Source of the DNA: an uncultured Clostridia bacterium
GTDB lineage: Bacteria > Bacillota > Clostridia > Christensenellales > Borkfalkiaceae
Length of the DNA: 54,920 bases
NCBI GenBank assembly: GCA_947589585.1
Contig: CANQCA010000001.1
Location: forward strand, 1-54,920
Direction of reading: 5' to 3'
Of the stretch, positions 6,952-42,873 are shown one piece after another. A program made the position numbers and the translations under genes. The number at the start of each line of letters is the position of its first letter. The stretch's first letter is position 1. The notes under the pieces were generated by a model. The model did not search any database. It was given only the letters and a program-made list of their open reading frames with translations, and was not told the DNA's origin.

Positions 6952-6953
<2 letters not shown>

Positions 6954-6973
6954 TACTATGCCACGCATAATAC
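6952..6973 (+). repeat. copy a of the recurrent motif AGTACTAT-N6-CATA (AGTACTATGCCACGCATAATAC)
   Basis: Overlaps the typA stop codon TAG (6951-6953). Arms GTACTATG / CATAATAC form an imperfect palindrome. Confidence 0.8.
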
Positions 6974-7002
6974 AATGCTGATCCCATAAATTTTATTGCA
7001 AC

Positions 7003-7046
7003 AAACCCGAACCGAGCCGCATTTGGCAGGTTTCGGGTTTTTCTTT
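7003..7046 (+). terminator. intrinsic terminator after typA
   Basis: AAACCCGAA ... TTCGGGTTT stem with an inner GCC/GGC helix, followed by TTTTCTTTT. Confidence 0.75.
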
Positions 7047-7067
7047 TGAAAAGTGATTGCGACGTCC

Positions 7068-7096
7068 TTGACATATCCTTGCCTTCGTGGTAAAAT
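7068..7096 (+). promoter_or_regulatory. sigma-A type promoter with extended -10, TTGACA-17-(TGg)TAAAAT
   Basis: -35 at 7068-7073, TGG at 7088-7090, -10 at 7091-7096. Confidence 0.75.
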
Positions 7097-7102
7097 TAAA
7101 AT

Positions 7103-7329
7103 GCCAAACAAACTTTATATCCAAGAAAAGGAGGGCACGGTTTTTTCATGTAAATCTAAAATATAAGGGGAGGAGTATTTCCTGCTCATACATTGCTCAT
7201 ATTAGAATTTGGCAGAACTGCAAATTCCAATATATGGACGTTACTACCGTGCCGTATATAAAGTTTGTTTGGCGACAACCGGAGTTTGCGTTTTGTATGC
7301 GCTGACTTCGGTTGGCGCATTTTTATTTT
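7103..7329 (+). promoter_or_regulatory. structured leader or candidate invertible segment upstream of the LRR lipoprotein gene
   Basis: 18-bp perfect inverted repeat at 7103-7120 / 7256-7273 enclosing 135 bp. A second complementary pair is GGCACGG 7134-7140 / CCGTGCC 7247-7253. A terminator hairpin at 7297-7320 (UUCG loop) plus T-run 7321-7329 ends 5 nt before the SD AAGGAGA. Confidence 0.6.
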
Positions 7330-7346
7330 ATCAAGGAGAAATTGTT

Positions 7347-9474: not shown

Positions 9475-10332
9475 ATGCTCGCGATCATCGATATCGGTTC
9501 AAATTCCGTTCGTCTCATGCTTTGGGCGAACGGAAAATCTTTATTTAAGCAAGTTTGCACGACCCGTCTCGGCGAGGGGCTTGCCGCTTCGGGGGAACTA
9601 TCCGAAGCGGCGATGGCGCGGACACAGGCCGCCGTCGCAATGTTTTGCGAGAAAGCTTCTTCGGAGGAAGCGCGCACCTATCCCTTCGCAACGGCCGCCG
9701 TGCGCAATGCAAGAAACGGCGCCGCGTTTTGCGAAAGGATCAAGGCCGCCTGCGGGGTCGAAGTCGACGTCGTCTCGGGCGAAGAGGAAGCGCTTCTCGG
9801 CCTTACGGGGGCACTTTCTTCGCGGAAAACAGGCGGGATCATCGATATCGGCGGGGCGAGCACGGAGATATGTTTTCGGGACGTGAACCTTGTTTCCCAA
9901 AAGAAGAGCCTTCCCGTCGGCTGCGTCAGTCTTTACGATCGCTGCGGCGAAGACAGAGCCAAGCTCCAGAGGGCGATCGGCGATGTCCTTTGCGGCTTGG
10001 ATCCGGGAAGGACCGCCCAGCCCGTCTATTCCATCGGGGGAACGGCCGCAACGCTTACTTCGCTCAAGCTCGGTCTTCCCTCCTACGACGCCGGGAAAAT
10101 GCAAGAGACGATCCTCACCCGCGATCTGATGCACCAAACGGCGGAACTGCTGTTCTCTCTTTCCGAAAGCGAAAGGCGGAAGCTCCCCGGGATGGACGCA
10201 TCGCGGGCGGATATCATTGCGGGCGGGGCGTTGCTCCTGCTCAATATTATGAATTTTTTACACCTTGACGAAGTGCGTTTTTCCGACAGAGACAATTTAG
10301 AGGGGTATCTTTTCGCGAGGATTTTGCAATGA
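9475..10332 (+). CDS. Ppx/GppA phosphatase family protein
   Basis: MLAIIDIGSNSVRLMLW..., IIDIGGASTE and GGTA motifs of the ASKHA-fold Ppx/GppA N-terminal domains. The ATG at 9475 follows the previous stop. Confidence 0.8.
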   Translation: MLAIIDIGSNSVRLMLWANGKSLFKQVCTTRLGEGLAASGELSEAAMARTQAAVAMFCEKASSEEARTYPFATAAVRNARNGAAFCERIKAACGVEVDVVSGEEEALLGLTGALSSRKTGGIIDIGGASTEICFRDVNLVSQKKSLPVGCVSLYDRCGEDRAKLQRAIGDVLCGLDPGRTAQPVYSIGGTAATLTSLKLGLPSYDAGKMQETILTRDLMHQTAELLFSLSESERRKLPGMDASRADIIAGGALLLLNIMNFLHLDEVRFSDRDNLEGYLFARILQ

Positions 10333-11726: not shown

Positions 11727-12989
11727 TTAACCCTTTGTGAGAGCGGAGATGAGAGGGAAAAAGCCCTCGAACGACTTCCTTGTGCAAGCTGCTTCCCCGA
11801 TGGTCACCCCGCCCGTTTTCAGCCCGATGAGGGTGAAGGCCATTGCCACGCGGTGATCGCCGAAGCTTGAAAGATGAGCGGGGCGCGGGCGACCGGGAAG
11901 GATGGTAAACCCGTCTTCCCGGACGGTGCATTTTATCCCGAGCCGTTGGAGATTTTCGCATACGGCCGCCAAGCGGTCGCTCTCCTGATAGCGGAGGCGG
12001 GAGAGCCCCGTGATGCGGGTAGGCGTCGTTGCAAAGGGCGCGAGTGCGGCCACCGTGAGCGCTTGGTCGGAAAGCGATCGCATGTCTTCGCAAAAGCCAC
12101 GATACTCCCCGACGCCCGTTGCATCGGCGGTGAGCCCTTCCTCCGTCTCCTCGATGCGGACGCCCCGCTCCTGCAGATAGGAGAGGAAGGCAATGTCGCC
12201 CTGCACACTTTCCCGCTTGATTTTGCGGACGGTCACGGCGGCGCGAAGAAGCAGAGCTGCGGCGAAGAAATAGCATGCGGCCGAGACGTCGGGTTCGATC
12301 CCGATCTCATTGGGCTTATTTTCGATGGGACCTACGTTGTATGTATTTCCCACCCGATTGCAAGCTCCGCCGAACATTTCTATGAGCTTTGCCGTCATCG
12401 TAAGATAGGGGGAATGCTCTTCTCCGTCGGATAAAACGACGGAGAGGGGGCGGCCTGAGACCGCACCTGCGAGCATGAGGCCGCTTGCATCCTGCGTGCT
12501 GATCTGTGTCGGACAAGTGAGCGCGTGCGCAGCGACGCCGTCCGAATGCATGCGGAAGGGGAGACGGCCCTCCTCTTCCGAAAAATCGAATTTCACGCCG
12601 CATTGCTTCAGGATGGATATGATCTCCATGGGACGGCCACGCATCTGCGCCGAGGCGTTCACCTCGAAATCTCCGCCAAAGAATGCGAGGCAGGCCGTGA
12701 GGAACCTCGCCGCGGCGCCCGAGCTCTCCACATCGATGGCTGCCCGCCGCGCGATCTCCCGCGTGCCGTGCACGAGAAGGCCGCCTTCGCACTTTTCCGT
12801 CCGTACGCCGAGCGCATCGAGAGAGAAGAGAAGGGCGCGTACGTCTCCGCACAGTTCGCCCGAAGCAAGGAAGGTGTCTCCGGGGGTCAGGGCGGACAGG
12901 ATGAGCGCGCGGATGAGGATGCTCTTGGAGGCGGGCACCTCGACGGTAAATTTTTTGCTTGAAAGCTTGTTGACGGTAAAATCGTCCAT
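11727..12989 (-). CDS. aroA: 3-phosphoshikimate 1-carboxyvinyltransferase (EPSP synthase)
   Basis: VPASKSILIRALILSAL..., LSDQALTVAALAPFA..., RYQESDRL..., GDHRVAMAF motifs. The start is placed at MDDFTV (12989); the alternative upstream ATG is at 13037. Confidence 0.88.
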   Translation of the reverse strand: MDDFTVNKLSSKKFTVEVPASKSILIRALILSALTPGDTFLASGELCGDVRALLFSLDALGVRTEKCEGGLLVHGTREIARRAAIDVESSGAAARFLTACLAFFGGDFEVNASAQMRGRPMEIISILKQCGVKFDFSEEEGRLPFRMHSDGVAAHALTCPTQISTQDASGLMLAGAVSGRPLSVVLSDGEEHSPYLTMTAKLIEMFGGACNRVGNTYNVGPIENKPNEIGIEPDVSAACYFFAAALLLRAAVTVRKIKRESVQGDIAFLSYLQERGVRIEETEEGLTADATGVGEYRGFCEDMRSLSDQALTVAALAPFATTPTRITGLSRLRYQESDRLAAVCENLQRLGIKCTVREDGFTILPGRPRPAHLSSFGDHRVAMAFTLIGLKTGGVTIGEAACTRKSFEGFFPLISALTKG

Positions 12990-13029
12990 ACGAAAGATTA
13001 TAAGCGGAAGGGAGGGAAAAGTCAAGCTC

Positions 13030-13671
13030 ATGGGCATCGGGAATTACGAAGTGGTGCGAAGCAAGCGGAAGAGCTTGTCGCTCACCGTCACACGCGATCG
13101 GAAAATTCTTGTAAGGGCGCCCCTTTCGGTTTCCGAAGAACAGATAGGAAATTTTGTCATGGCGCACGGGAAATGGATAGAAAGGCGGCTCGCCGAGATG
13201 AGATACACGCCGACATTTTCCGACGGAAGCAAAATTCTCCTTCTCGGGCAGGAGATGGAGATCGCCTCCATGGCGCGGGCGGCCGTGAAAGATGGGGTAG
13301 TCTATCTGCCCCGTGCGGATCGCGAACGGGCGCTTGAGAGTATGTTGCGCCGCCTCACACGCGAGCGGATGCAGAGGATGCTTCTTTGCATCTGCGAAAA
13401 GGAACCGTCGCTTGAATTTACAAAGCTTACCGTGACGGGTGCGCGGGGAAGATGGGGCTCTTGCAGCAGCAAGAAGCATATTTCCTTTTCCTTCCGTACC
13501 GCCTTCCTTCCCGACGATCTCGCATACTACCTTTGCGTACACGAGCTTTGCCATACCCTGCATATGGATCACAGTGCAAAATTTTGGGCGTGCGTTGCGC
13601 GTCTCGTGCCCGACTATGCAAAAAAGAGGCGGGCGCTCAAGTCTTATCTTTGGGCGATGAACTGCCTTTGA
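13030..13671 (+). CDS. YgjP-like (DUF45/M48-type) metal-dependent hydrolase
   Basis: C-terminal 214 aa of track ORF 12475..13671. It contains RGRWGSCS...ISF..., HELCH (HExxH) and FW motifs. The upstream part of that ORF is antisense to aroA and was discarded. Confidence 0.75.
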   Translation: MGIGNYEVVRSKRKSLSLTVTRDRKILVRAPLSVSEEQIGNFVMAHGKWIERRLAEMRYTPTFSDGSKILLLGQEMEIASMARAAVKDGVVYLPRADRERALESMLRRLTRERMQRMLLCICEKEPSLEFTKLTVTGARGRWGSCSSKKHISFSFRTAFLPDDLAYYLCVHELCHTLHMDHSAKFWACVARLVPDYAKKRRALKSYLWAMNCL

Positions 13672-13695
13672 GCACATAAATTTGAAAGTTTGCAA

Positions 13696-13717
13696 AGTAC
13701 TATGTCACGCATAATTG
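13696..13717 (+). repeat. copy b of the recurrent motif (AGTACTATGTCACGCATAATTG)
   Basis: Lies 25 nt after the YgjP-like stop. It shares the 16-mer TTTGCAAAGTACTATG with copy d. Confidence 0.8.
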
Positions 13718-13833
13718 AAGGATATATCGCATTTTTCGCAAAAATCGTATTTTCATAAATACGATGAAAAATTACATTTTCCTCAAGAAAAATTGCAAAT
13801 TTTATATTTACAAAATTTTATGTATAGGTTATA

Positions 13834-18057: not shown

Positions 18058-20439
18058 TTATTGTTTCTTCTTGGGGCGGGTGAGGATGTAGTAGCAAATG
18101 CCGAAGATGACGATCCCGAAGAAGAAGATGATGGGGACGACGATGAAGGTCGCAAGGTCGGAAGTGCTCGTAAAGTCGATCTTTGCCGAGAGGGCGACGA
18201 TGAACGTGATCACGATGGTAAGGGCATAGCCGACGACTGCATTGATAAGCGCGGGGCCGTTCCTTCGTATCGAACGTGCGCCGTAGTGGTTCGCATAGGC
18301 GAGACCGGTGACGAGAAGAACGACGACGCCGATCGCCCAGATGAAATAGGGGAAGTAGAGGGGAATGCCGTATTTCTCTCTCACGGCCATCACGATGGCC
18401 CCTTCGACGATGCAAACAAAGAGGAGCACGATGGCGGAGAGGAAGAGCATCTTTCCCTTATGGACGGTGTTGACGATATCTTCCTCGACCTTGGCGGGCA
18501 TGCCGCCGCCCGTCGTCGTGACGCGGATCCCGTCGCGTGAAGCACGCATCTCGAGGTCGTGGAAATCGATCCCGTCGAGCGGGCGTGCATATGCCGCGGC
18601 GTCGCCCCCATGTTCGGGCCGGTTGGCTCCCGCATAGATGCGGCGGACGACGGAACGGTATTCCTGCTCGGCCGCGGAGGCATCGAGCTCACCGTCTTCT
18701 TCCTTCCGTGCGGAAGAATTTACGAGGTCGAGATAGTTTTTGTGAAGGATCTGCTGTTCGCGCTGGCGGAAGATAACTTCTTGCTCCTGTAAGATCCTGC
18801 GTTCCTGATCGGCGAGCTCCTGCACATGCGCCCTGCGCTCGGCGCTGAGCTGTTCGTCCCTTTGGCGGAGAAGATCGGCGAAACGGCTGCGCTCCTGCGC
18901 ATAGAAGGCTTCCCGCTCGTTGAATTGCTGTTCGCGTTCTTCGATGATGCGTTTTCTCGAGGCTTCTTCCTCGTCGAGGATGCGCTTTCTCTCAAGCTCC
19001 TCAGCGGCGAGCGTGGACTTTTTGGCGGCCTCTTCAGCCTCAAGTGCGGCGCGTCTCACAGATTCAGCCTCTTCGAAGGCGCGCTTTCTCTCGGCCTCCT
19101 CGGCATCGAGCTTTGCCTTGCGGGCCTCGGCTTCCTCATCGAGAATACGCCTGCGCTCGCTCTCTTCCGCCTCCAAAGCGGCGCGGCGGGCGGCTTCTTC
19201 CTCGTCCATGGCGCGGCGCCTCTCCTCGAGACGGGCGGCCTCTTCGGCGAGGGCGGCTTCCTTTTGCTCCTGCTCTGCATTGGCGATGGTGATCTGCTCC
19301 CTGCGCATCGCCTCGAGACGTTCACGCTCTGCGGCAAGGGCCTGCTCGCGGGTCGCGATCTCCTGTTCACGCCATGCGAGTTCGCTGTCGGCGGCGTCCT
19401 CGTGCGCTTTTACCTCCTCTTCAAAGAGCTGCTTCTCTTCCTCATGGGCTTTTACTTCCTCTTCGAGGCGAAGCTTTTCCTCTTCGTGCAGACGGACCTC
19501 CTCCGCAAAGAGAAGGCGGTCTTCCTCGTGGGCTTTGACCTCTTCCTCGAGGCGTATCTTTTCTTCTTCGTGCGCCTTGAGTTCTTCCTCGAAGAGCTGT
19601 CTTTCCTCCTCATGCGCCTTGAGTTCTTCCTCGAAGAGCTGTTTTTCCTCTTCGTGCGCTTTTACTTCTTCCTCGAAGAGCTGCTTTTCTTCCTCATGCG
19701 CCTTGACCTCTTCTTCGAGGCGAAGTTTTTCTTCCGCATGGGCTTTTACTTCCTCTTCGAAGAGTTGCTTTTCTTCCTCATGCGCCTTGACCTCTTCTTC
19801 GAGACGAAGTTTTTCTTCCTCATGCGCCTTGACCTCTTCTTCGAGACGAAGTTTTTCTTCCTCGAGAGATTTGCGCTCCTCCTCGAGCTCGGCATTTTTA
19901 CGGGCGAACTCTTCGCTCAGGCGTGCCCGTTCCAAAGAATCATCGAAAACGGGTTCATAGTCGAGCTCCTCGCCTTCGCCCTCGCGGGAGGGGACGCGGG
20001 AGGTCGAGCTGCGCAGAACACGCATGTCCACCTGCGTGGGGGCGGGATTGTTGAAGTCGAAATCCTTATCCGAAATGAGCGAGTCGATGACCGTTCTCGA
20101 ATATTCCCACTCCGATTGGTTTTGCTCAGAGACGAGCTTTCCTTCATCGGTGAGGGAGAAATATTTCCTTCTGCCGCCCGCGACGGAGCCACCCCAATAG
20201 GAAGTCACATAGCCGTTCTTTTCGAGGCGCTTGAGCGCGCTGTAGAGGGAGGGCTCTTTGAGGGAATACTGCCCGTGGCTCTTGCGCTCGATCTCGGACA
20301 TGATCTCGTAGCCGTATTTATCTCCGTCGTAGAGTGCACGCAAGATTATGGTATTGATATGCCCGCGGATGAGATCGGAACTTATCGACTTATCGTCCTT
20401 TTGTTCTTTGACTTCATCGGGAGCGAATTCATCATCCAT
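18058..20439 (-). CDS. PadR-family wHTH fused to a long charged repeat or coiled-coil region and a C-terminal 4-TM domain
   Basis: N-terminus DLIRGHINTIILRALYDGDKYGYEIMSEIERKSHGQYSLKEPSLYSALKRLEKNGYV...GGRRKYFSLTDEG is PadR-like. About 420 aa are E/K/R/A-rich repeats. The last ~150 aa carry four hydrophobic helices. GGAGGA lies upstream. Confidence 0.8.
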   Translation of the reverse strand: MDDEFAPDEVKEQKDDKSISSDLIRGHINTIILRALYDGDKYGYEIMSEIERKSHGQYSLKEPSLYSALKRLEKNGYVTSYWGGSVAGGRRKYFSLTDEGKLVSEQNQSEWEYSRTVIDSLISDKDFDFNNPAPTQVDMRVLRSSTSRVPSREGEGEELDYEPVFDDSLERARLSEEFARKNAELEEERKSLEEEKLRLEEEVKAHEEEKLRLEEEVKAHEEEKQLFEEEVKAHAEEKLRLEEEVKAHEEEKQLFEEEVKAHEEEKQLFEEELKAHEEERQLFEEELKAHEEEKIRLEEEVKAHEEDRLLFAEEVRLHEEEKLRLEEEVKAHEEEKQLFEEEVKAHEDAADSELAWREQEIATREQALAAERERLEAMRREQITIANAEQEQKEAALAEEAARLEERRRAMDEEEAARRAALEAEESERRRILDEEAEARKAKLDAEEAERKRAFEEAESVRRAALEAEEAAKKSTLAAEELERKRILDEEEASRKRIIEEREQQFNEREAFYAQERSRFADLLRQRDEQLSAERRAHVQELADQERRILQEQEVIFRQREQQILHKNYLDLVNSSARKEEDGELDASAAEQEYRSVVRRIYAGANRPEHGGDAAAYARPLDGIDFHDLEMRASRDGIRVTTTGGGMPAKVEEDIVNTVHKGKMLFLSAIVLLFVCIVEGAIVMAVREKYGIPLYFPYFIWAIGVVVLLVTGLAYANHYGARSIRRNGPALINAVVGYALTIVITFIVALSAKIDFTSTSDLATFIVVPIIFFFGIVIFGICYYILTRPKKKQ
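19398..19862 (-). repeat. about 11 tandem 42-bp coding repeats (14-aa unit VKAHEEEK[LQ][RL][LF]EEE)
   Basis: Period-42 tandem repeat seen directly. The last two units on the + strand (CATGCGCCTTGACCTCTTCTTCGAGACGAAGTTTTTCTTCCT) are identical. Confidence 0.9.
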
Positions 20440-20464
20440 AGACGTTTCCTCCTTTGTTTCCTAT

Positions 20465-20493
20465 ATTTTACCACTTTGCATAGATTTTGTCAA
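20465..20493 (-). promoter_or_regulatory. sigma-A type promoter for the PadR-like gene, TTGACA-17-(TGg)TAAAAT on the minus strand
   Basis: Reverse complement reads TTGACAaaatctatgcaaagtggTAAAAT, about 25 nt upstream of the ATG at 20439. Confidence 0.7.
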
Positions 20494-20502
20494 TAGGAAA
20501 AT

Positions 20503-20524
20503 AGTACTATGTCAGACATAATTT
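20503..20524 (+). repeat. copy c of the recurrent motif (AGTACTATGTCAGACATAATTT)
   Basis: Sits in the divergent promoter region, 9 nt beyond the -35 of the PadR-like gene promoter. The core ATGTC-A-GACAT is a perfect palindrome. Confidence 0.8.
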
Positions 20525-20552
20525 TTATAAAAAATTAAGATTTTCTCATAAT

Positions 20553-21932
20553 TTGCACGAAAAACACATAGGAAAGCATGTGAATATCTTGCAGGGGGCA
20601 TTTTTTATCGTCGGCGGAGCGATCGGTGCGGGATTTGTCTCGGGGGCCGAGCTCGTGCGCTTTTTTCCCTCTGCACAGTACTTTGCACCCGCGCTTTTTT
20701 CGGGGATCTGCTTCGCCTTTTTCTGCGCGCTCTTCCTGCATTTCGGCAAGGTCTATGGGGGATTCTATCCCACCCTTGTAAAATTTTTCGGAAGGGGAGC
20801 GGGCGCGGCGAGGATCGCCATCTCGATTCTCTTTCTCGTCCCGTCCGCGGCGATGCTTGCGGGGCTGGATGCGCTTTTGCCCGCTATCTCTCCGCTTCCG
20901 TCGATCGGCGGGGCATTGCTCTGCGCAATGGTCATCCGCCGGGGAACGGTCGGGGTGGGAAAACTGAACAGCATCCTCGTTCCCGCTTTGATCTTCTGCA
21001 TCTTTCTTTTCGGCGGGCGAACGCTCTCCTTCGGCGACATATCGTTCGGGGGAATGGGAGGTGGCCTTCTCTATGCCTCGCTCAACTGCTTTTTGATGGC
21101 GCCCGTGCTCATGGATGCGGGAAGGGATATGCGCAATATCGCTGCGCCCTGTTTGCTTGCGGCCGCCATCGTCTTCTTCTCGTCGATGTGCATTCTCGGA
21201 AGTATCCGTGCTTGCGGCGAGAGGGCATTATCCGCCGAGATGCCCTTCCTCTATGCCATGGGGGGAAGGCCTTTTGTAAAGTTCCCGCTCGCACTCGCCA
21301 TCCTCACCTCGCTCGCATCTTCTCTCTATCCGCTCCTTCGTCTCCTCGAAAAGTTTCCGGGCAAGATAAAAACGGCCGCAAAGGGCGGAATGCTCCTTGC
21401 GGCCTTCGCACTCTCCCGCATCGGTCTTACGGGGATCGTGCAATATATCTACCCCGTGGAGGGGATGCTCGGCATATGCTTTTCAGTTTTCGGTATTTTT
21501 CAGGAGTATTTTCTCGAGAAGCACCACAAGAAAGTACATCCCCGCCGCGAGAACGCACAAGATCAGGGTGGCGCTCATCACGAGGTCGAGGCGGAACACC
21601 TGCCCGCCGTAGACGATAAGGTACCCGAGCCCGGCCCGCGAGACGATGTATTCTCCCATGATGGACCCGATCCACGCCATGCCGACGTTTACTTTCAGCA
21701 TGGAGATGAATGCGGGAAGGGAAGAGGGCACGACGAGCCTCGTGAGGATCTGAAACTTGCTCGCACCCATCGACCTGAGGAGGAGCATCTTATTCTTATC
21801 TGTTTCGATGAAGGCGGAGAGCATGTGCATGATCGCCACGATCACGCCGACGAGTACGGTCATGAACAGGATCGCCGTGCTGCCCGTCCCGAACCAGATG
21901 ATGATGAGCGGCCCCAAAGCGATCTTGGGTAA
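20553..21932 (+). CDS. YkvI-like polytopic membrane protein with a doubtful C-terminal tail
   Basis: The first ~325 aa are a multi-TM protein (FFIVGGAIGAGFVSGAELV...). The last ~130 aa are charged and low-complexity and lie antisense to the ABC permease gene. The start may be the GTG at 20580. Confidence 0.55.
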   Translation: MHEKHIGKHVNILQGAFFIVGGAIGAGFVSGAELVRFFPSAQYFAPALFSGICFAFFCALFLHFGKVYGGFYPTLVKFFGRGAGAARIAISILFLVPSAAMLAGLDALLPAISPLPSIGGALLCAMVIRRGTVGVGKLNSILVPALIFCIFLFGGRTLSFGDISFGGMGGGLLYASLNCFLMAPVLMDAGRDMRNIAAPCLLAAAIVFFSSMCILGSIRACGERALSAEMPFLYAMGGRPFVKFPLALAILTSLASSLYPLLRLLEKFPGKIKTAAKGGMLLAAFALSRIGLTGIVQYIYPVEGMLGICFSVFGIFQEYFLEKHHKKVHPRRENAQDQGGAHHEVEAEHLPAVDDKVPEPGPRDDVFSHDGPDPRHADVYFQHGDECGKGRGHDEPREDLKLARTHRPEEEHLILICFDEGGEHVHDRHDHADEYGHEQDRRAARPEPDDDERPQSDLG

Positions 21933-26951: not shown

Positions 26952-29573
26952 ATGGAGGAAACCATGAAAGACTTCATCGTAGACGGCGAGGAATCGCTGG
27001 AAAAATTGCTCGCGCGGGTGCGTGCCGCCCAGAGGAAATTTGCGACATATTCGCAGGAGCAGGTGGATGAAATTTTCTACCGCGCCGCGCTCGCCGCAAA
27101 TAAAATGCGTATCCCGCTCGCAAAAATGGCGGTGGAAGAGACGGGCATGGGCGTCGTCGAGGACAAGGTCATCAAAAACCACTATGCCTCGGAGTACATT
27201 TATAACGCCTACAAAAATACAAAGACGTGCGGCGTCATCGAGCATGACGAGGGGTTCGGCTTCACCCGCATTGCGGAGCCGATCGGCGTCATCGCCGCCA
27301 TCATCCCCACGACCAATCCCACCTCGACGGCCATCTTCAAGGCGCTCATCTGCCTGAAGACGCGAAACGGGCTCATCATTTCCCCGCACCCGCGGGCAAA
27401 GAGAAGCACGATCGAGGCGGCAAAGATCGTCCTCGATGCGGCAGTCAAGGCGGGTGCGCCCGAGGATATCATCGGCTGGATAGATTTTCCCACCGTCCCG
27501 CTCTCGGGTATGGTCATGCGCGAAGCGGACATGATCCTTGCGACGGGCGGCTCGGGAATGGTGAAGGCCGCCTATACTTCGGGGAAGCCCGCCCTCGGCG
27601 TCGGCGCGGGAAATACGCCCGCCGTCGTCGATTCCACGGCGGATATCCGTCTCGCTGCTTCTTCCATCCTGCACTCCAAGACCTTCGATAACGGCATGAT
27701 CTGCGCCTCCGAACAGTCCGTCATCGTGCTTTCGGATATCTACGACGCATTCAAGGCCGAGATGGCGCTGCGCGGCGCCTATTTCCTCACCGGGGAAGAG
27801 ACGGAAATGGTCAGACGCACCATGTTCATAAACGGCGGGCTCAATGCCCGCATCGTCGGACAGACGGCAAAGACGATTGCGAGCCTTTCCGGCTTCGAAG
27901 TTCCCGATAAGACGAAAGTGCTCGTCGGCGAAGTGGAGAGCGTGGATTTTTCCGAGCCCTTCGCACACGAAAAGCTCTCGCCCGTGCTCGCGATGTACAG
28001 GGCGGAAGACTTCAAAGACGCCGTCGCAAAGGCGGAGCACCTCATCGAGGACGGCGGGCTCGGGCATACTTCCTCGCTGTATGTCGACGTTCACGCCCAT
28101 CCCGAAAAGGTAGAATATTTCTCTTCTGTGCTCAAGACCTGCCGCATCGTCCTCAACACGCCCTCTTCGCACGGCGGCATCGGCGATCTCTATAACTTCA
28201 AATTTGCACCCTCACTCACCCTTGGTTGCGGATCTTGGGGCGGGAACTCCGTCTCCGAGAACGTGGGAGTCAAGCACCTCATCAATATCAAAACGGTAGC
28301 GGAAAGGAAGGAGAATATGCTTTGGTTCAAAACGCCCGAAAAGGTGTATTTCAAGCGCGGCTGCCTCGGCGTCGCCTTAAAAGAGCTTGGCGAAGAATAC
28401 GGCAAGAAGAAGGCTTTTATCGTCACGGATAAATTCCTCTTTGAGAGCGGATATACGAAGCGCGCGACGGACGTGCTCGACAGCCTCGGCATCATCCACG
28501 AGACCTACTTTGGCGTCACGCCCGATCCCACGCTCGCATGTGCCAACGAGGGGCTTGCCCGCATGCGGGAGTTCGCACCCGACGTCATCATCGCGATCGG
28601 GGGCGGTTCGCCCATGGACGCCGCCAAGATCATGTGGGTCATGTACGAACACCCCGACGTCGACTTCGAAGATATGGCAATGCGGTTTTCGGATATCCGC
28701 AAACGCATCTATAAGTTCCCGCATATGGGGGAGAAGGCGCTCTTTGTCGCCATTCCCACGACGGCGGGCACGGGGAGCGAAGTCACGCCCTTCGCCGTCA
28801 TCACCGACGAGAAGACGGGAGGGAAGTACCCGCTCGCCGACTACGAACTCATGCCGAATATGGCGATCGTCGACGCCGACCTCATGATGAGCATCCCGAA
28901 GGGGCTCACGGCGGCATCGGGCATCGACGCGCTGAGCCACGCCTTGGAGGCGATCGCCTCCACGATGGCGACGGACTTTACGAACGGCATCGCCAAGGAA
29001 GCGGCAAAACTCATCTTCGAATATCTGCCGCGCGCATACGAAAAGGGCGCGGACGATATAGAGGCGCGCGAGCGGATGGCGAATGCGGCGACGATGGCGG
29101 GCATGGCGTTTGCCAACGCCTTCCTCGGCGTGTGCCATTCGATGGCGCACAAGCTCGGGGCGTACTTCCATATCGCGCACGGCGTCGCAAACGCGCTCAT
29201 GCTCGAAGAGGTCATCCGCTTCAACAGCGCCGATGCTCCCACGAAGATGGGGACCTTTCCGCAGTACGCCTACCCGCAGTGCAAGGAGCGCTATGCAGAC
29301 CTTGCCCGCTACGTGGGACTCAAAGGGAAAACGGACGACGAGCTCGTGGAAAAGCTCATCGAAAAGGTCAAAAAGCTCCGCTCTGAGATCGGCATCCATG
29401 CGACCATCCGCGAGGAGCTGGAGGGGAAGTTCACCGAAGAGGATTTCCTCGGAAAACTCGACGAAATGTCGGAGGCTGCGTTCGACGACCAGTGCACGGG
29501 CGCCAATCCCCGCTACCCGCTCATTGAGGAAATTAGGGAAATGTATCTGAACGCCTATTACGGCAGGAAGTAA
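26952..29573 (+). CDS. adhE: bifunctional acetaldehyde-CoA / alcohol dehydrogenase
   Basis: 873 aa with an N-terminal ALDH domain and a C-terminal iron-ADH domain (GGGSPMDAAK, HSMAHKLG). The ATG at 26964 (GGAGG 5 nt upstream) is an equally good start. Confidence 0.93.
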   Translation: MEETMKDFIVDGEESLEKLLARVRAAQRKFATYSQEQVDEIFYRAALAANKMRIPLAKMAVEETGMGVVEDKVIKNHYASEYIYNAYKNTKTCGVIEHDEGFGFTRIAEPIGVIAAIIPTTNPTSTAIFKALICLKTRNGLIISPHPRAKRSTIEAAKIVLDAAVKAGAPEDIIGWIDFPTVPLSGMVMREADMILATGGSGMVKAAYTSGKPALGVGAGNTPAVVDSTADIRLAASSILHSKTFDNGMICASEQSVIVLSDIYDAFKAEMALRGAYFLTGEETEMVRRTMFINGGLNARIVGQTAKTIASLSGFEVPDKTKVLVGEVESVDFSEPFAHEKLSPVLAMYRAEDFKDAVAKAEHLIEDGGLGHTSSLYVDVHAHPEKVEYFSSVLKTCRIVLNTPSSHGGIGDLYNFKFAPSLTLGCGSWGGNSVSENVGVKHLINIKTVAERKENMLWFKTPEKVYFKRGCLGVALKELGEEYGKKKAFIVTDKFLFESGYTKRATDVLDSLGIIHETYFGVTPDPTLACANEGLARMREFAPDVIIAIGGGSPMDAAKIMWVMYEHPDVDFEDMAMRFSDIRKRIYKFPHMGEKALFVAIPTTAGTGSEVTPFAVITDEKTGGKYPLADYELMPNMAIVDADLMMSIPKGLTAASGIDALSHALEAIASTMATDFTNGIAKEAAKLIFEYLPRAYEKGADDIEARERMANAATMAGMAFANAFLGVCHSMAHKLGAYFHIAHGVANALMLEEVIRFNSADAPTKMGTFPQYAYPQCKERYADLARYVGLKGKTDDELVEKLIEKVKKLRSEIGIHATIREELEGKFTEEDFLGKLDEMSEAAFDDQCTGANPRYPLIEEIREMYLNAYYGRK

Positions 29574-29611
29574 AATGGGGGGAATATTTCTCGATATTCC
29601 GGCATTTGCAA

Positions 29612-29633
29612 AGTACTATGCGTGACATAGATA
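29612..29633 (+). repeat. copy d of the recurrent motif (AGTACTATGCGTGACATAGATA)
   Basis: Lies 39 nt after the adhE stop, between convergent adhE and rplI. Its central 5 nt are the reverse complement of those in copy b. Confidence 0.8.
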
Positions 29634-29650
29634 TTTGATCGAACTATAAG

Positions 29651-29679
29651 AAAAACGCCTCCAAAGAGGCGTTTTTTTA
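29651..29679. terminator. bidirectional intrinsic terminator between adhE and rplI
   Basis: AAAAACGCCTC-CAAA-GAGGCGTTTTTTT. Confidence 0.85.
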
Positions 29680-29690
29680 CAATATGATTT

Positions 29691-30137
29691 TTATTCGAGG
29701 GGAACGACGTGCACCTTGATCTTGGCGACGACGCCCTCCATAAACCGCACTTCGGCATCGTAGGTGCCGACGTTTTTGAGCGGTTCCTTCGTCGTGATGC
29801 GCTTTTTATCCACCTCGTAGCCGAGCTCCGAGAGGGCCGCAGCGATCTTATCCGTCGTGACCGAGCCGAACACTTTCCCGTTCTTGCCCGTGCGGATGGC
29901 GACCTTCACTTCGCTTCCGCCAAGCTTTGCCGCCTGCTCCTTGAGCGCCTTGATATTTTCCGCCTTGTGGAAGGCATCTGCCGTGCGCTTTTGTTCCACT
30001 TCGTTGATCCCGCTCGCCGTTGCGATCTCTGCGAGACTGCGCTTCAAAAGAAAATTTTTGGCAAATCCGTCGGAAACTTCAACGATCTCGCCCTTCTTGC
30101 CCGTGCCTTTTACGTCTGCCTTGAGGATAACTTTCAT
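29691..30137 (-). CDS. rplI: 50S ribosomal protein L9
   Basis: MKVILKADVKGTGKKGEIVEVSDGFAKNFLL... is the canonical L9 N-terminus; 148 aa. Confidence 0.93.
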   Translation of the reverse strand: MKVILKADVKGTGKKGEIVEVSDGFAKNFLLKRSLAEIATASGINEVEQKRTADAFHKAENIKALKEQAAKLGGSEVKVAIRTGKNGKVFGSVTTDKIAAALSELGYEVDKKRITTKEPLKNVGTYDAEVRFMEGVVAKIKVHVVPLE

Positions 30138-33366: not shown

Positions 33367-34254
33367 GTGAACTTTTCCAGCGAGATCAGAAGGGAGCTCA
33401 TGCGGAACGTCCCCAAAAAACGTTGCTGCGATCTCGCCCTTTTACGCGCCTTTCTCGATACGAGCGGGACGATCGCGCAGGGGCGCGGAGGAGGGTTTTC
33501 CTTCACGAGCGAAAACGAGGATATCGCCGGATACATGCTCGGCATCGTCGAAAAACTCTTCTGCGTCCGGATGACGGTGGAAGGGGCGGTACGTGACCCC
33601 AAGCACGGGCGGGACAAGCTCACCTTTTCCTATCGCGGCGAGGGTGGCGCGGCCTTTGCGGAGGAACTTTTGAATGCGCGTCTTCTTCCCTGTTGCGAGC
33701 AGGCGTATCTTCGCGGGGCATATCTCGGGAGCGGCAGCTGTACCCTTCCCCGCGGCGACAGTAAGACGGGCTATCATCTCGAATTTGTCTTTCGCACGAG
33801 GGAGCGCGCCCTTGCCCTTCTCGAGATCCTCGACGGGCTGCAGCTCATCGGGAGCATCGTAAAGCGGGGGGAAAAGAGCGTCGTCTATTGCAAGTCGCGG
33901 GAGGCAATCGCCGATTTTCTCTCCGTCGTCGGGGCGGAGGGGGCGCTGAAAACGCTCGAGGATGTCTCCGCCGTCCGTGAGGAAAATAATCAGGAGAACC
34001 GCGTGCTCAACTGCCTTGCAGGCAATGCCGACCGTGCGGCTATGGCCAGCGCGGAGCAGACCGTCGCCTTTGCTCATCTCAAAAAGACGGGGCTTTTGCT
34101 GTCGCTTCCCGAGCCCCTTCGCGCGGCTGCGGAGGGACGCCTTCTTTATCCCACACTCTCGCTTGCGGAGCTTGCGGAAAAGCTCTCCGTCTCCAAGAGC
34201 TGCCTCAACCACCGCATCAGAAAACTCATGCAAATTTATACGGAACACCTATGA
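33367..34254 (+). CDS. whiA: DNA-binding protein WhiA
   Basis: FSSEIRRELMRNVPKKRCC..LALLRAF, a LAGLIDADG-like middle domain, and a C-terminal HTH (LSLAELAEKLSVSKSCLNHRIRKL). GTG start. Confidence 0.88.
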   Translation: MNFSSEIRRELMRNVPKKRCCDLALLRAFLDTSGTIAQGRGGGFSFTSENEDIAGYMLGIVEKLFCVRMTVEGAVRDPKHGRDKLTFSYRGEGGAAFAEELLNARLLPCCEQAYLRGAYLGSGSCTLPRGDSKTGYHLEFVFRTRERALALLEILDGLQLIGSIVKRGEKSVVYCKSREAIADFLSVVGAEGALKTLEDVSAVREENNQENRVLNCLAGNADRAAMASAEQTVAFAHLKKTGLLLSLPEPLRAAAEGRLLYPTLSLAELAEKLSVSKSCLNHRIRKLMQIYTEHL

Positions 34255-39895: not shown

Positions 39896-39965
39896 TCCAA
39901 GCGTTTTTTGTGTGTAACTTTTGCGCCCTTCGTTTCACAACCAAAATTCGTCATTTTTCCGCACG

Positions 39966-40014
39966 ACCACAAGATATAGTGGTATGCGGAAAATTTTTTA
40001 CCAAAATATGGGGA
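39966..40014 (+). promoter_or_regulatory. two candidate NrdR boxes
   Basis: ACCACAAGATATAGTGGT (39966-39983) and ACCAAAATATGGGGA (40000-40014). Their centres are about 32 bp apart, immediately upstream of the nrdD promoter. Confidence 0.45.
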
Positions 40015-40020
40015 ATTTCC

Positions 40021-40049
40021 TTGACAAGCAAATACCGCCGATGTATAAT
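40021..40049 (+). promoter_or_regulatory. sigma-A type promoter, TTGACA-17-TATAAT
   Basis: Perfect hexamers at 40021-40026 and 40044-40049. Confidence 0.75.
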
Positions 40050-40137
40050 AAAAACGTTCCCTTCCGGGGGGACGATTTTTTCCCTTCCGAGCCGCTTTTT
40101 CTTTTGCGGGACGGGCGAAGGGGGCAAGGAGCGAACA

Positions 40138-42306
40138 ATGAAGATCATAAAAAGAAACGGGGCCGAAGTCGCCTTCGATATCGATAAGATCATAAATGCC
40201 GTACGCAAAGCCAACAACGAAGTGAGCGATATGAACCGTCTTTCGGAGGAGCAGATCGAACGCATCGCCGAAAACGTCGCCGCGCTTGCGGGGGATCTCA
40301 ACAGGGCTGTGAATGTCGAGGAGATCCAAGACTATGTCGAAAACCAGATCATGGACCAAAAGGCGTTTGCCGTCGCGCGCAAATACGTCACATATCGCTA
40401 TGCCCGCGCGCTCGCCCGTAAGAAGAATACCATCGACGATCAGATCCTCACGCTCATCGAGTGCAACAACGAGGAAGTCAAGCAGGAAAATTCCAACAAA
40501 AATCCCACCGTCAACTCTGTGCAGCGGGACTATATGGCGGGCGAGGTCTCCAAGGACCTCACGCGCCGCGTCCTTCTTCCCCGCGAGATCGTCGAAGCGC
40601 ACGATCAGGGCCTCATCCATTTCCACGATATGGACTATTTCGCCCAGCACATGCACAACTGCGACCTCGTCAATCTCGAGGATATGCTGCAAAACGGCAC
40701 CGTGATCTCGGGGACGATGATCGAAAAACCGCATTCTTTTTCTACGGCTTGCAACATTGCGACGCAGATCATCGCACAGGTCGCCTCCAACCAATACGGC
40801 GGTCAGTCCATCTCGCTCACCCATCTCGCACCCTTCGTCGATATCAGCCGCCAAAAGATCCGCGCGGAAGTTTTGGAAGAACTCAAAGACGTCGCCGTCA
40901 TGCAGGATACCATCGATGCGATCACGGAAAAACGCCTGAAAGAAGAGATCAGGAAGGGAATTCAGACCATCCAATACCAGGTCGTCACCCTGCTTACGAC
41001 GAACGGACAAGCTCCCTTCGTCACCGTCTTTATGTATCTCGGTGAAGCGAGAAACGAAAGAGAACGCGACGATCTCGCCATGATCATCGAGGAGACCTTG
41101 CGCCAGCGCATCGAGGGCGTCAAGAACGAATCGGGCGTCTATGTCACACCCGCCTTCCCCAAGCTCATCTATGTGCTCGAAGAAGACAATGTGCGCGAAG
41201 GAAGTAAATATTGGTACCTTACAGAGCTCGCCGCAAAGTGCACGGCAAAGCGCATGGTGCCCGACTACATCTCCGAGAAGAAGATGCTCGAGTTCAAGGT
41301 GGATAAGAACGGTGAGGGGCACTGCTATACCTGCATGGGCTGCCGCAGCTTTTTAACGCCCTATGTCGACGAAAACGGCAAGCCGAAATACTACGGAAGA
41401 TTCAACCAGGGGGTCGTCACCATCAACCTTGTCGACGTCGCGCTCTCCTCGCAGGGGGATATGGAGGAGTTCTGGAAGATCTTCGACGAACGCTTAGACC
41501 TTTGCTACCGTGCACTCCTGTACCGCCACAACAGGCTCAAAGGGACGCTCTCCGACGCCGCGCCCATTCTTTGGCAGTACGGCGCGCTCGCCCGCCTCAA
41601 GAAGGGGGAACCCATCGATAAGCTGCTCTACGGCGGATATTCCACGATCTCGCTCGGCTATGCGGGCCTCTATGAATGCGTCAAATATATGACGGGGAAG
41701 TCGCACACCGATGCCGAGGCCAAGCCCTTCGCGCTCTCCGTGATGCAGCATATGAACGATAAGTGCAAGGAGTGGAAGGCAAAGCACAACATCGATTTCT
41801 CGCTCTACGGGACGCCGCTCGAGAGCACGACCTACCGTTTCGCAAAGTGCCTGCAGCAGCGGTTCGGGATCATCCCCGGCGTCACCGATAAGAATTATAT
41901 CACCAACAGCTACCATGTGCACGTCACGGAAAAGATCGACGCATTCACCAAGCTCAAGTTCGAGAGCGAGTTCCAGCAGCTCTCCCCGGGCGGCGCGATC
42001 TCCTATGTGGAAGTGCCCAACATGCAGGATAACATTCCCGCAGTGCTCGCCGTGATGCAGTACATCTATGAGAACATCATGTATGCCGAACTCAACACCA
42101 AGAGCGACTACTGCCAGGTGTGCGGCTACGACGGCGAGATCAAGATCGTCGAAGAGGACGGAAAGCTCCTCTGGGAATGCCCGCACTGCCACAACCGCGA
42201 CCAGAGCAAGATGAATGTCGCCCGCCGTACCTGCGGCTATATCGGCACGCAGTATTGGAACCAAGGGCGCACGCAGGAGATCCGGGACAGAGTCTTACAC
42301 CTTTAA
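40138..42306 (+). CDS. nrdD: anaerobic ribonucleoside-triphosphate reductase
   Basis: MKIIKRNG..V.FD..KI is an ATP-cone. A C-terminal CxxC...CPHC zinc site and the glycyl-radical motif RRTCGYIG are present. AAGGAG lies at 40126-40131. Track ORF 39910 was trimmed. Confidence 0.92.
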   Translation: MKIIKRNGAEVAFDIDKIINAVRKANNEVSDMNRLSEEQIERIAENVAALAGDLNRAVNVEEIQDYVENQIMDQKAFAVARKYVTYRYARALARKKNTIDDQILTLIECNNEEVKQENSNKNPTVNSVQRDYMAGEVSKDLTRRVLLPREIVEAHDQGLIHFHDMDYFAQHMHNCDLVNLEDMLQNGTVISGTMIEKPHSFSTACNIATQIIAQVASNQYGGQSISLTHLAPFVDISRQKIRAEVLEELKDVAVMQDTIDAITEKRLKEEIRKGIQTIQYQVVTLLTTNGQAPFVTVFMYLGEARNERERDDLAMIIEETLRQRIEGVKNESGVYVTPAFPKLIYVLEEDNVREGSKYWYLTELAAKCTAKRMVPDYISEKKMLEFKVDKNGEGHCYTCMGCRSFLTPYVDENGKPKYYGRFNQGVVTINLVDVALSSQGDMEEFWKIFDERLDLCYRALLYRHNRLKGTLSDAAPILWQYGALARLKKGEPIDKLLYGGYSTISLGYAGLYECVKYMTGKSHTDAEAKPFALSVMQHMNDKCKEWKAKHNIDFSLYGTPLESTTYRFAKCLQQRFGIIPGVTDKNYITNSYHVHVTEKIDAFTKLKFESEFQQLSPGGAISYVEVPNMQDNIPAVLAVMQYIYENIMYAELNTKSDYCQVCGYDGEIKIVEEDGKLLWECPHCHNRDQSKMNVARRTCGYIGTQYWNQGRTQEIRDRVLHL

Positions 42307-42348
42307 GAAAAGGGGAACGGACCCGTACAAGGGCAGTAAAATCATCGC

Positions 42349-42870
42349 ATGAACATTGCCGAAGTCAAGAAAACAGATATCGCAAACGGAGAGGGAGTAC
42401 GCGTTTCCCTCTTCGTTTCAGGCTGTAGACGGCATTGCAAGAACTGCTTCAACGCCGTTGCATGGGATTTTTCCTATGGAAGGCATTTCGACAAAGGATT
42501 CGAAGAGGAGATCTTAAATGCGCTCTCCCCCGACTATATCGCGGGGCTTTCGCTTCTCGGCGGGGATCCCTTTGAGCCCGAGAACCGGGAGGGGCTGCTT
42601 CCGTTTTTGAGAAAGGTCCGCGCCCGTTTTCCCGATAAGACGATCTGGTGCTACACGGGCTATACCTTCGAAGACGGGGGCATCCGCGAGCCGCAGGTGG
42701 GCGGCGAGCGGGCACGCGAGATGATTTCCCTTCTCGACGTCCTCGTCGACGGACCGTTTATCGAAGAACTCAAGGATATCCGCCTCAAATTCCGCGGCTC
42801 ATCCAACCAGCGCGTCATCGATGTGAAACGCAGTTTAGAGCAAAATAGCGTAGTACTATATCTGACATAG
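42349..42870 (+). CDS. nrdG: anaerobic ribonucleotide reductase activating protein (radical SAM)
   Basis: DIANGEGVRVSLFVSGCRRHCKNCFN carries the CxxxCxxC cluster motif. Confidence 0.9.
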   Translation: MNIAEVKKTDIANGEGVRVSLFVSGCRRHCKNCFNAVAWDFSYGRHFDKGFEEEILNALSPDYIAGLSLLGGDPFEPENREGLLPFLRKVRARFPDKTIWCYTGYTFEDGGIREPQVGGERAREMISLLDVLVDGPFIEELKDIRLKFRGSSNQRVIDVKRSLEQNSVVLYLT

Positions 42871-42873
42871 TAC
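42852..42873 (+). repeat. copy e of the recurrent motif (AGTACTATATCTGACATAGTAC)
   Basis: Overlaps the nrdG stop codon TAG (42868-42870). Arms GTACTAT / ATAGTAC are perfectly complementary. Confidence 0.8.

Follow-up and report, generated by a model that had tools for sequence, protein, structure and literature searches.

A near-invariant 20-bp motif with helically phased flanks in uncultured gut Clostridia may mark the centres of ~140-bp protein-wrapped chromosomal sites

Bacterial chromosomes are thought to be organised mainly by weakly specific proteins and by transcription, and the sequence-specific sites known to contribute (parS, NBS, SBS, matS and ram) are few and short. NBS, SBS and matS, the sites of Noc, SlmA and MatP, respectively, are palindromic, high-specificity sites of dimeric proteins that occur in tens to hundreds of copies independently of the function of neighbouring genes, and Noc complexes attach DNA to the membrane. 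To our knowledge, strand bias, 140-bp phased flanks or an odd-centred asymmetric dyad have not been reported for any of the three. DNA gyrase acts at sites of another kind: its Escherichia coli motif covers 130 bp, symmetrically around the point of cleavage, with a degenerate centre (-16 to 19) and arms (-63 to -17 and 20 to 66) in which G/C content varies with a 10.75-bp phase that has been likened to nucleosomes, and cleavage is enriched downstream of transcription units (PMC6379681). The BIME-2 repeats (BIME, bacterial interspersed mosaic element) are strong gyrase sites that are independent of transcription (PMC6379681). Here we describe a 20-bp motif that recurs in a 54,920-bp stretch of DNA from an uncultured Clostridia bacterium (contig CANQCA010000001.1; the window) and in related genomes. 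Its copies form a set that is conserved among relatives, sits in characteristic genomic contexts, is biased in strand and lies within flanks of helically phased A/T content. From these properties we infer, leaning only slightly in favour of this interpretation, that the copies are the sequence-specific centres of ~140-bp duplex sites that would wrap on a protein complex and serve an architectural role.

The pattern AGTACTAT-N6-CATA has five exact copies in the window (starts 6952, 13696, 20503, 29612 and 42852), all on the + strand:

6952..6973, + strand: copy a, AGTACTATGCCACGCATAATAC; overlaps the typA stop codon
13696..13717, + strand: copy b, AGTACTATGTCACGCATAATTG; 24 nt past a YgjP-like open reading frame (ORF) that ends at 13671
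20503..20524, + strand: copy c, AGTACTATGTCAGACATAATTT; the consensus form, in a divergent region
29612..29633, + strand: copy d, AGTACTATGCGTGACATAGATA; between convergent adhE (+) and rplI (-), upstream of their shared terminator
42852..42873, + strand: copy e, AGTACTATATCTGACATAGTAC; nearly symmetric

An earlier note on this DNA had claimed five strand-consistent copies that are not due to chance, and the counts bear this out: 0.00 copies were expected, with a maximum of 0, in 100 dinucleotide-preserving shuffles of the window. The octamer alone has seven matches on both strands of the window against 0.24 expected, and GTACTA is confined there to the five copies, with AGTACT occurring once besides them. 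Permitting two mismatches added only reverse readings of copies a and e, and a scan of the window with the 20-nt consensus gave no further match at six or fewer mismatches, indicating that the copies are a discrete set and not the tip of a degenerate family. A chance origin of the set is ruled out by the shuffles together with this absence of near-matches.

The gene contexts that the note assigned to the five copies are also correct, the ORF ends placing copies b and d 24 nt and 38 nt after their genes. The typA ORF ends at 6953, such that copy a provides the AG of its TAG, and an intrinsic terminator follows ~50-95 nt downstream. Copy b lies 116 nt ahead of the MBL-fold gene that precedes rho, and copy c begins 9 nt beyond the -35 hexamer of a PadR-like gene and 54 nt ahead of the ATG (20579) of a membrane-protein gene. 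adhE ends at 29573, ahead of copy d, and the nrdG ORF ends at 42870, its stop being the TAG at motif positions 17-19 of copy e, which lies 54 nt ahead of an M29 aminopeptidase gene. The core of copy b is the exact reverse complement of that of copy d, and the cores of copies c and e are related in the same way with one mismatch; these inversions of the centre, which had been noticed before, are what half-site variants of a dyad would produce.

Eighty loci were fetched from species-representative genomes with Rho as the query, blind to the motif. They contain 46 exact occurrences, all on the Rho strand and all confined to the clade of the nearest loci (Rho 57-78% identical), which comprises uncultured Clostridia of rabbit and chicken gut and ‘Candidatus Gallimonas’; no exact motif was found in the more distant Rho loci of Christensenellaceae, Oscillospiraceae and Paenibacillus. 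With position 5 left free, 60 distinct sites were counted in the 738.5 kb of the 42 clade loci (1 per 12.3 kb); 55 of them lie on the Rho strand only, five read on both strands (symmetric sites) and none on the other strand only. These 60 sites fall at three orthologous positions (after typA, ahead of the gene preceding rho, and beside the PadR promoter), in agreement with the conservation in related genomes that had been suggested as a check. Species that lack the exact pattern have variants at the same positions, for example AGTATTATG, AGTAATATG and AGTAGTATG, and a T at position 5 produces the perfect 23-bp palindrome AGTATTATGTC-W-GACATAATACT.

A metagenome scan with the pattern AGTACTATGTSWGACATAAW recovered at least 120 further stretches, mostly from gut assemblies, bringing the total with the earlier loci to at least 179 instances, at least 162 of them unique; in short form, the core pattern reads AGTANTATG-N5-CATAA. 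Clustering of the flanks by protein similarity gave at least 48 groups, and exclusion of three low-GC groups (9, 24 and 38), which probably come from outside the clade and represent chance or unrelated matches, left ~45 independent genomic positions among the matches listed. The post-typA position of copy a (group 2) recurs in at least nine other species, that of copy b (group 1) in ~20 species, and that of copy d (group 28) in locus L187. The core profile, computed with equal weight per group, is an asymmetric odd-centred dyad, AGTAcTATGTC-W-GACATAAT. Positions 1-9 (AGTACTATG) and 13-19 (GACATAA) are near-invariant, T10 is present in 93%, C11 in 73% and T20 in 60% of the weighted profile, position 12 is A or T, and positions 21-23 hold a mere trace of the palindromic partner. 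From -8 to +23 the motif carries ~40 bits of information, versus the roughly 15 that ~200 sites would require in a few-megabase genome. The motif is a real, strongly selected element that acts at the level of DNA.

The sequence of the flanks is not conserved, yet their A/T content oscillates around the core. Upstream, A/T peaks at -5/-6, -15/-16, -25/-26, -36/-37, -46/-47 and -57/-58, and downstream at +27 to +29, +38 to +40, +49 to +51, +58 to +61 and +68 to +71; relative to the dyad, the peaks lie at ±6, 16, 26.5, 37, 47.5, 58 and 68 bp. The left flank is T-rich and the right flank A-rich, such that the pattern is symmetric about position 12. The best-fitting cosine has a 10.36-bp period (bootstrap 95% interval 10.20-10.55), a phase 6 bp off the dyad and an amplitude of 0.070, compared with 0.0001 ± 0.005 for control positions taken from these loci (z≈14; best-fit maximum among controls, 0.019). 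Phasing was positive in 44 of 46 groups, intragenic groups included, and it decayed from 0.11 at 13-33 bp to 0.04 at 55-75 bp and 0.02 at 76-90 bp, the A/T ladder extending from ±13 to ~±72 bp. It is stronger in the left arm (amplitude 0.084 vs 0.056 in the right), and the asymmetry of the core itself lies in its strict outer left arm as opposed to its degenerate outer right arm. Two loci hold tandem copies 32 bp, or three helical turns, apart (L086 3326/3358 and L193 10974/11006). In loci of the PadR region, the class to which copy c belongs (class c; L016, L019, L039, L050 and others), a second partial site, TGTCAGACATAA, which has no AGTAC arm, lies in helical register with the main site at a distance of ~51 bp between it and the first dyad, close to where the divergent membrane-protein gene starts.

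A 10.36-bp periodicity shared by unrelated flanks suggests duplex DNA that is bent one way, i.e. on the surface of a protein. Applied to the copies in the window, the group-average A/T phasing predicts the following wrapped segments:

6891..7035: putative wrapped segment a, dyad 6963 ± 72 bp
13635..13779: putative wrapped segment b, dyad 13707 ± 72 bp
20442..20586: putative wrapped segment c, dyad 20514 ± 72 bp
29551..29695: putative wrapped segment d, dyad 29623 ± 72 bp
42791..42935: putative wrapped segment e, dyad 42863 ± 72 bp

Both the promoter of the PadR-like gene and the beginning of the divergent membrane-protein gene would fall within segment c. In the mechanism we propose, the 20-bp core, consisting of a strict left arm (AGTAcTATG), a centre (TC-W-GA) and a right arm (CATAAT), would be recognised by direct readout, for which the simplest reader is a dimeric winged-helix protein with recognition elements one helical turn apart. 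The A/T tracts, recurring every 10.36 bp, would face their narrow minor grooves to one side, and ~±70 bp of DNA would curve round the bound protein.

The main rival explanation, which we consider rather unlikely, is that the copies are dedicated strong gyrase sites, at which the core would serve gyrase as gate segment and the arms would wrap on the GyrA C-terminal domains, and which would be placed where positive supercoils accumulate, downstream of genes and between convergent genes. The arms (±13 to ~72 bp, symmetric about the centre) are like those of the E. coli motif, the preference for 3' ends and convergent pairs (12 convergent to two divergent groups among the matches listed) and the ~12-kb spacing are as this explanation would have them, and one copy lies on a mobilisable element. 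Flexible TpA steps ±5.5 bp from the dyad would also suit the bends made by a type IIA enzyme. However, ~17 positions are invariant here, whereas the centre of the E. coli motif is degenerate and indirectly read, and the core is lineage-specific and drifts between sister lineages, whereas gyrase is highly conserved. Moreover, the axis of the motif falls on a base pair (W), whereas a 4-bp staggered cut puts the axis between base pairs, and the best-fit period of 10.36 bp (10.20-10.55) is nominally shorter than the 10.75 bp seen in E. coli, although fitting at 10.75 bp lowers the A/T amplitude only from 0.070 to 0.067. Recruitment of gyrase to the sites by a specific factor is possible.

Genes around the sites were called by codon and dicodon models, which miss atypical genes and mis-assign strands in short windows; because these calls are rough, decisive contexts were checked with Pfam. 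The groups, counted here and below among the matches listed, are distributed as follows:

Co-directional gene-motif-gene: ~18 groups
Between convergent genes: 12 groups
Between divergent genes: 2 groups (PadR promoter; NlpC/P60-hydrolase pair)
Motif opposed to both flanking genes: 3 groups (xerD-like/hflX; rsgA/rpe; BrnTA/Mob_Pre mobilisable element)
Inside genes, sense strand: 6 groups (MiaA, DNA-alkylation repair enzyme, SpoIIIAE, RibF, Dxs, α/β hydrolase)

Convergent positions thus outnumber divergent ones 12:2 (one-sided binomial P = 0.0065). The flanking genes, which include typA, adhE, nrdG, uvrA, gyrA, thyA, birA, spoIVB, gpsA, dacB, mgmt, glycosidases and peptidases, are functionally unrelated, and at many operon junctions the motif ends 11-23 nt ahead of a start codon. 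At locus L132 (4861) the site lies 56 nt past the gyrA stop codon, directly after the gyrA terminator. A canonical copy is also present on a mobilisable element encoding BrnT/BrnA and a Mob_Pre relaxase (L177 2901; also L107 and L196), where, in L177, it lies 151 nt upstream of mob in the opposite orientation. The ~12-kb spacing, the fixed positions, the placement at 3' ends, between convergent genes and inside genes, and the general avoidance of promoters argue for a function that is chromosome-wide. Such a role would consist of the management of supercoils or the anchoring of loops or membrane contacts rather than regulation of neighbouring genes.

These contexts bear on the proposal, made in the earlier note, that the motif is an operator for a dimeric regulator, possibly of the PadR family. 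What holds of it is a dyad at the level of DNA and a PadR-like gene as the best candidate for the binder; what does not hold is a classical operator set, against which we count the density of ~1 per 12 kb, the functionally unrelated neighbours, the convergent and intragenic sites, the ~140-bp phased flanks and the 3-bp gap between half-sites. We therefore regard it as improbable that the copies are the ordinary operators through which a transcription factor, whether global or local and whether PadR-like or not, represses or activates the adjacent genes. The core is dyad-symmetric, copy c adjoins both the PadR -35 and the divergent promoter, with the second partial site near the start of the divergent gene, and helical phase to the -35 is retained in locus L323 (see below). 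But only two of the ~45 positions are divergent, while 12 are convergent and six intragenic, and many sites lie between co-transcribed genes of unrelated function, 11-23 nt from a start codon. Roughly 15 bits would suffice for ~200 sites, as opposed to the ~40 present, and 140-bp phased flanks are foreign to simple operators.

The strand bias of the motif is real. In addition to the 55:0 ratio in the Rho loci, the informative orientations (co-directional and intragenic) are 24:3 in favour of the gene strand (P ~2.5e-5), and 11 of 12 pairs of motifs on the same contig share a strand. Gene strand and replication direction are confounded, since the motif shares its orientation with approximately 76-86% of coding bases. 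Convergent and divergent contexts do not inform on orientation and the three exceptions run against both gene strand and replication direction, such that orientation by replication and orientation by transcription are not separable. A polar chromosomal motif had been considered before, and its strand bias (24:3, and 55:0 in the Rho loci) stands, but the length, conserved positions and flanks are unlike those of FtsK-orienting polar sequences (KOPS) or Chi. A replication-oriented motif for a translocase or recombination machine, resembling KOPS, SpoIIIE recognition sequences (SRS) or Chi, would account for the 55:0 and 24:3 ratios and for the 11 of 12 same-strand pairs, and KOPS occur in E. coli at ~1 per 12 kb, similar to the density seen here. 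Known polar motifs are 5-8 nt long and lie mostly in coding DNA, and their individual sites are not conserved. The present motif, by contrast, is 20 nt long, mostly intergenic, partly palindromic and conserved in position, with symmetric phased flanks, and at least one copy (L136) is opposed to both local genes and the majority strand, making this explanation very improbable.

We had expected a single fixed order of stop codon, motif and terminator, but both orders occur. The claim that the motif lies before the terminator is correct for typA and adhE only. A strong terminator follows the motif after typA in at least seven species and after adhE, whereas at other loci (e.g. L082, L101, L127, L139 and L163) it stands immediately before the motif and the next gene is convergent. 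At locus L170 (7950; also L099) the motif lies between the terminator of the thrS T-box leader, which contains aaggtggaaccgcg, and the ribosome-binding site. The occurrence of either terminator order, together with the T-box case, indicates that the sites are independent of transcripts. In operons confirmed by Pfam checks, three sites are antisense.

These observations are difficult to reconcile with an RNA element. The suggestion that the motif is a hairpin or processing site in 3' untranslated regions is not supported, since the stem is marginal, the motif lies on either side of terminators, one site is in a divergent promoter and three are antisense in operons. Most sites are co-oriented within transcription units, and copies ending in ...CATAATACT can form an 11-bp interrupted stem. 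An element in 3' or 5' untranslated regions acting as a stability, processing or protein-binding hairpin would be expected to fold, yet the minimum free energies are -1.3 kcal/mol (common form) and -4.0 kcal/mol (extended form), with a mean of -2.4 vs -1.4 for shuffles, and an Rfam scan of the window found two tRNAs only, with no match at the motif. The right arm that the stem requires is weakly conserved, sites occur past strong terminators, in the divergent promoter and antisense in confirmed operons, and the 10.4-bp periodicity of non-conserved flanks has no RNA explanation. This explanation, to which we give very little credence, is already largely refuted here. Two loci in which the motif tops a terminator-like hairpin count in its favour; in these (L095 8612 and L157 531), A-rich and T-rich runs (AAAAAACAAAG ... 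CTTTGTTTTTT) flank the motif and the whole forms the hairpin.

A promoter recognised by an alternative sigma factor or by a phage-type RNA polymerase is likewise highly improbable. In this explanation the -35 would be TTKMCA at -7 to -2 and the -10 CATAAT at 15-20, with transcription starting at ~27, or else the -10 would be TACTAT and the start A16. A T-rich, -35-like sequence often does lie just upstream, CATAAT is close to a consensus -10, positions 26-29 are A-rich and the sites are co-oriented with genes. However, the spacer would be 14-15 bp and not 16-18, the 12 convergent positions have no gene to drive, and the post-typA start would fall 5-25 nt ahead of the terminator in at least seven species. 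Transcription from such a promoter at thrS would skip the T-box, several loci place the ribosome-binding site upstream of the predicted start, and the A/T ladder is symmetric, reaching 70 bp downstream. A sigma-A promoter with either TACTAT or CATAAT as its -10 was rejected on its spacers (10-15 or 22-24 nt) as well as on the convergent, terminator-order and T-box conflicts, and we know of no sporulation sigma, sigma-54 or phage-type promoter whose spacing fits the motif.

The intragenic sites reveal how copies have arisen. Frame 1 of the motif translates as S-T-M-S/C-D-I-I/N, and frame 2 holds TAA, which the intragenic-site analysis gives as the stop of nrdG. Pfam matches to conserved domains cross the motif without extra residues in MiaA (37-276 vs model 2-242) and SpoIIIAE (73-391 vs 2-320), and match length likewise equals model length across the motif in RibF and Dxs, indicating that the intragenic sites arose by substitution and not by insertion. 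In-frame insertion of a mobile element into these genes was accordingly rejected. The same codons bear the motif in two to seven orthologues whose flanks are 55-77% identical, and this repeated recovery of the same intragenic position in divergent genomes is, unlike the identity of the core, not by design.

The same sites weigh on the possibility of a selfish repeat. A palindrome like the repetitive extragenic palindromic (REP) elements, spread by a REP-associated tyrosine transposase (RAYT) or another HUH transposase, would be extragenic with a conserved 5' block (here A-GTAC), would prefer 3' ends and convergent pairs, and would be clade-specific and consistent in strand, as this motif is. 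Its positions, however, are kept across genera, substitution accounts for its intragenic copies, the stem is weak and rich in A/T, copies occur singly and not in pairs, and no transposase was seen beside any site in the loci examined. Phasing is present at each site although the flanks share no repeated sequence, which argues for selection in place, and we consider a REP-like origin scarcely plausible. A phage origin was rejected, as two scans of viral contigs gave chance-level matches and one canonical copy.

If the copies are the centres of wrapped sites, a protein must read the core, and the gene beside copy c encodes the best candidate:

18058..20439, - strand: PadR-like protein gene (793 amino acids; candidate cognate binder)
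20465..20493, - strand: consensus sigma-A promoter of the PadR-like gene (-35 TTGACA at 20488-20493, 17-nt spacer, -10 TAAAAT at 20465-20470)
20579..21932, + strand: divergent membrane-protein gene (no Pfam match; its promoter region adjoins copy c)

The PadR-like protein has an N-terminal PadR winged helix (amino acids 32-102), whose closest solved relatives are LmrR-like PadR proteins, a coiled coil of ~400 amino acids rich in E and K with ~15 near-identical repeats (EEKLRLEEEVKAHEE...), and four C-terminal hydrophobic helices. Across the clade the winged helix is 70-93% identical, making it more conserved than Rho, the recognition helix is invariant, and the architecture of PadR plus a four-helix membrane part is conserved. 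The repeats are a frequent point of breakage in assemblies of relatives, and the majority of homologues in databases are truncated; gene calls for L323 and L324 split the PadR and membrane portions into two ORFs. The -10 of the promoter is preceded by TGG, and class-c loci keep the PadR -35 and a TATAAT -10. The ORF on the opposite side of copy c (20553-21932, +) overlaps a convergent ABC permease gene (21483-22319, -) by ~450 nt, such that its 3' end is uncertain, or there may be a sequencing frameshift.

All 44 PadR-like genes have the motif (0-2 mismatches) 60-160 nt upstream, beside the -35 and in the same orientation. A homologue in L323 (48% identical) has an identical motif 18 nt from the -35 instead of the usual 8-9 nt, i.e. 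one helical turn further. Elsewhere the sites tend to avoid promoters, and their presence at this one therefore resembles autoregulation by whatever factor occupies them. The consensus contains the inverted half-sites ATGT (positions 7-10) and ACAT (14-17), 3 bp apart, and its conserved blocks CTATG and CATAA lie one helical turn apart. Our tentative choice of binder, which we hold with a little less than even confidence, is therefore the membrane-anchored PadR-like protein, putatively repressing its own gene from copy c; gyrase reading the core directly is about half as likely, and the remaining probability goes to some other protein. As a more doubtful extension, the 20-bp motif could be an oriented signal, placed every ~12 kb, that this protein reads to tether or loop the chromosome or to recruit gyrase.

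Several points weigh against these interpretations. The wrapping is read from sequence periodicity, and the proposal offers no mechanism for the strand bias. Density, spacing and relation to the replichores are extrapolated from loci rather than complete genomes, and the metagenome loci were chosen by the motif itself, so that conservation of the core there is partly by design. PadR/LmrR operators have the form ATGT-N8-ACAT, and the 3-bp spacing of the half-sites here differs from that 8-bp gap. On its own, a PadR-type dimer of ~110 amino acids is too small for 140 bp of wrapped DNA, and the coiled coil is absent from the L323 homologue. Position 5 varies between sister lineages while the recognition helix is invariant, and in L324, whose PadR homologue is 59% identical, palindromes at 9900-9990 and 16513-16621, adjoining the PadR gene and a sigma-factor gene, carry changes in both arms (GTATTCTGTC / GACAGAATAC) while the recognition helix is unchanged; a comparison of the recognition helix with the motif variants across the clade homologues accordingly gave no co-variation of protein and DNA. 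The link to the PadR-like protein comes from a single class of sites, at which an autoregulated or an unrelated factor could bind, and the family is small, its 202 matches being annotated just as ‘PadR family transcriptional regulator’.

WhiA was rejected as the binder. The lead had been a yvcK-whiA match from an unrelated low-GC organism, and the whiA gene of the window has no site. The WhiA ORF of the window (33367-34254, +; LAGLIDADG_WhiA and HTH_WhiA domains) is preceded by genes for MurB and a PHP-domain protein, and no motif was found within 3.7 kb of it. WhiA sites contain the word GACAC, and the motif carries GACAT on both strands, not GACAC. In the unrelated low-GC loci L111 and L119 (WhiA 29% identical), an exact 22-mer lies in the 3' end of a cofD/yvcK-like gene, 124 nt before whiA. 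Housekeeping proteins encoded in the window include YabQ, WhiA, Rho, DnaE and NrdDG, and the window has a G+C content of ~55%. Shadow ORFs, neither with a Pfam match, run antisense to valS (23618-26662, -) and to the YgjP-like gene (12316-13695, -); the one opposite valS, at 1014 amino acids, exceeds the real gene, and at such a G+C content such ORFs mislead gene calling by ORF length.

The motif is unusual in combining an over-informative invariant core, flanks that appear to have evolved for wrapping, positions fixed across genera, sites in coding sequence and strand bias. If it does nucleate a wrapping complex, these uncultured gut bacteria would have a hard-wired, directly testable organisation of domains or supercoils, possibly with membrane tethering. 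Supercoil or loop domains and membrane attachment programmed by sequence would be without a described counterpart, although an earlier description may exist, and selection would have been strong enough to write the signal into conserved enzyme domains. As a practical matter, the motif is a sharp marker of the lineage.

Comparison with known systems places the motif between several of them. PadR/LmrR operators share with it the inverted ATGT/ACAT halves and a copy beside the promoter of a PadR-family gene, the arrangement seen where PadR proteins autoregulate, but the spacing here is 3 and not 8 bp, the sites would number in the hundreds as opposed to one or two, and the candidate binder is membrane-anchored through four helices and has a long coiled coil. 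Membrane one-component regulators of the BcrR type combine a helix-turn-helix with four transmembrane helices and act at one or a few promoters. The domain logic of the candidate binder is similar (a DNA-binding and a four-helix membrane domain, beside a membrane-protein gene), but action at few promoters leaves ~1 site per 12 kb, and the intragenic and convergent sites, unexplained. With REP elements and BIMEs the motif shares an extragenic imperfect palindrome and a distribution of ~18 co-directional, 12 convergent and two divergent groups among the matches listed; in contrast to them, its stem is weak (-1.3 to -4 kcal/mol), its positions are conserved across genera and six groups among the matches listed are intragenic.

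The arrangement of A/T minor grooves at ~±5-6, 16, 26, 37, 47, 58 and 68 bp, with a period slightly below 10.5 bp over ~140 bp, is that of nucleosome positioning sequences, although the motif is bacterial, has a sequence-specific core at its dyad, and no histone-like protein was identified. Likeness to Noc lies in the candidate binder, since a membrane-anchored PadR-like protein would likewise attach DNA to the membrane, but the motif is unrelated in sequence to NBS, SBS and matS, and no homologue of Noc, SlmA or MatP is implicated. The E. coli gyrase motif, the strong gyrase site of phage Mu and BIME-2 are, like the motif, ~130-140 bp and symmetric, with arms phased at 10-11 bp and a location in 3' intergenic DNA, and they have been proposed to act independently of transcription and to contribute to genome organisation. 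The motif differs from these gyrase sites in having a near-invariant, lineage-specific 20-bp centre, an axis on a base pair, a best-fit period of 10.36 rather than 10.75 bp and no repeat unit beyond the core, and in being conserved in position across genera and present in coding sequence as well.

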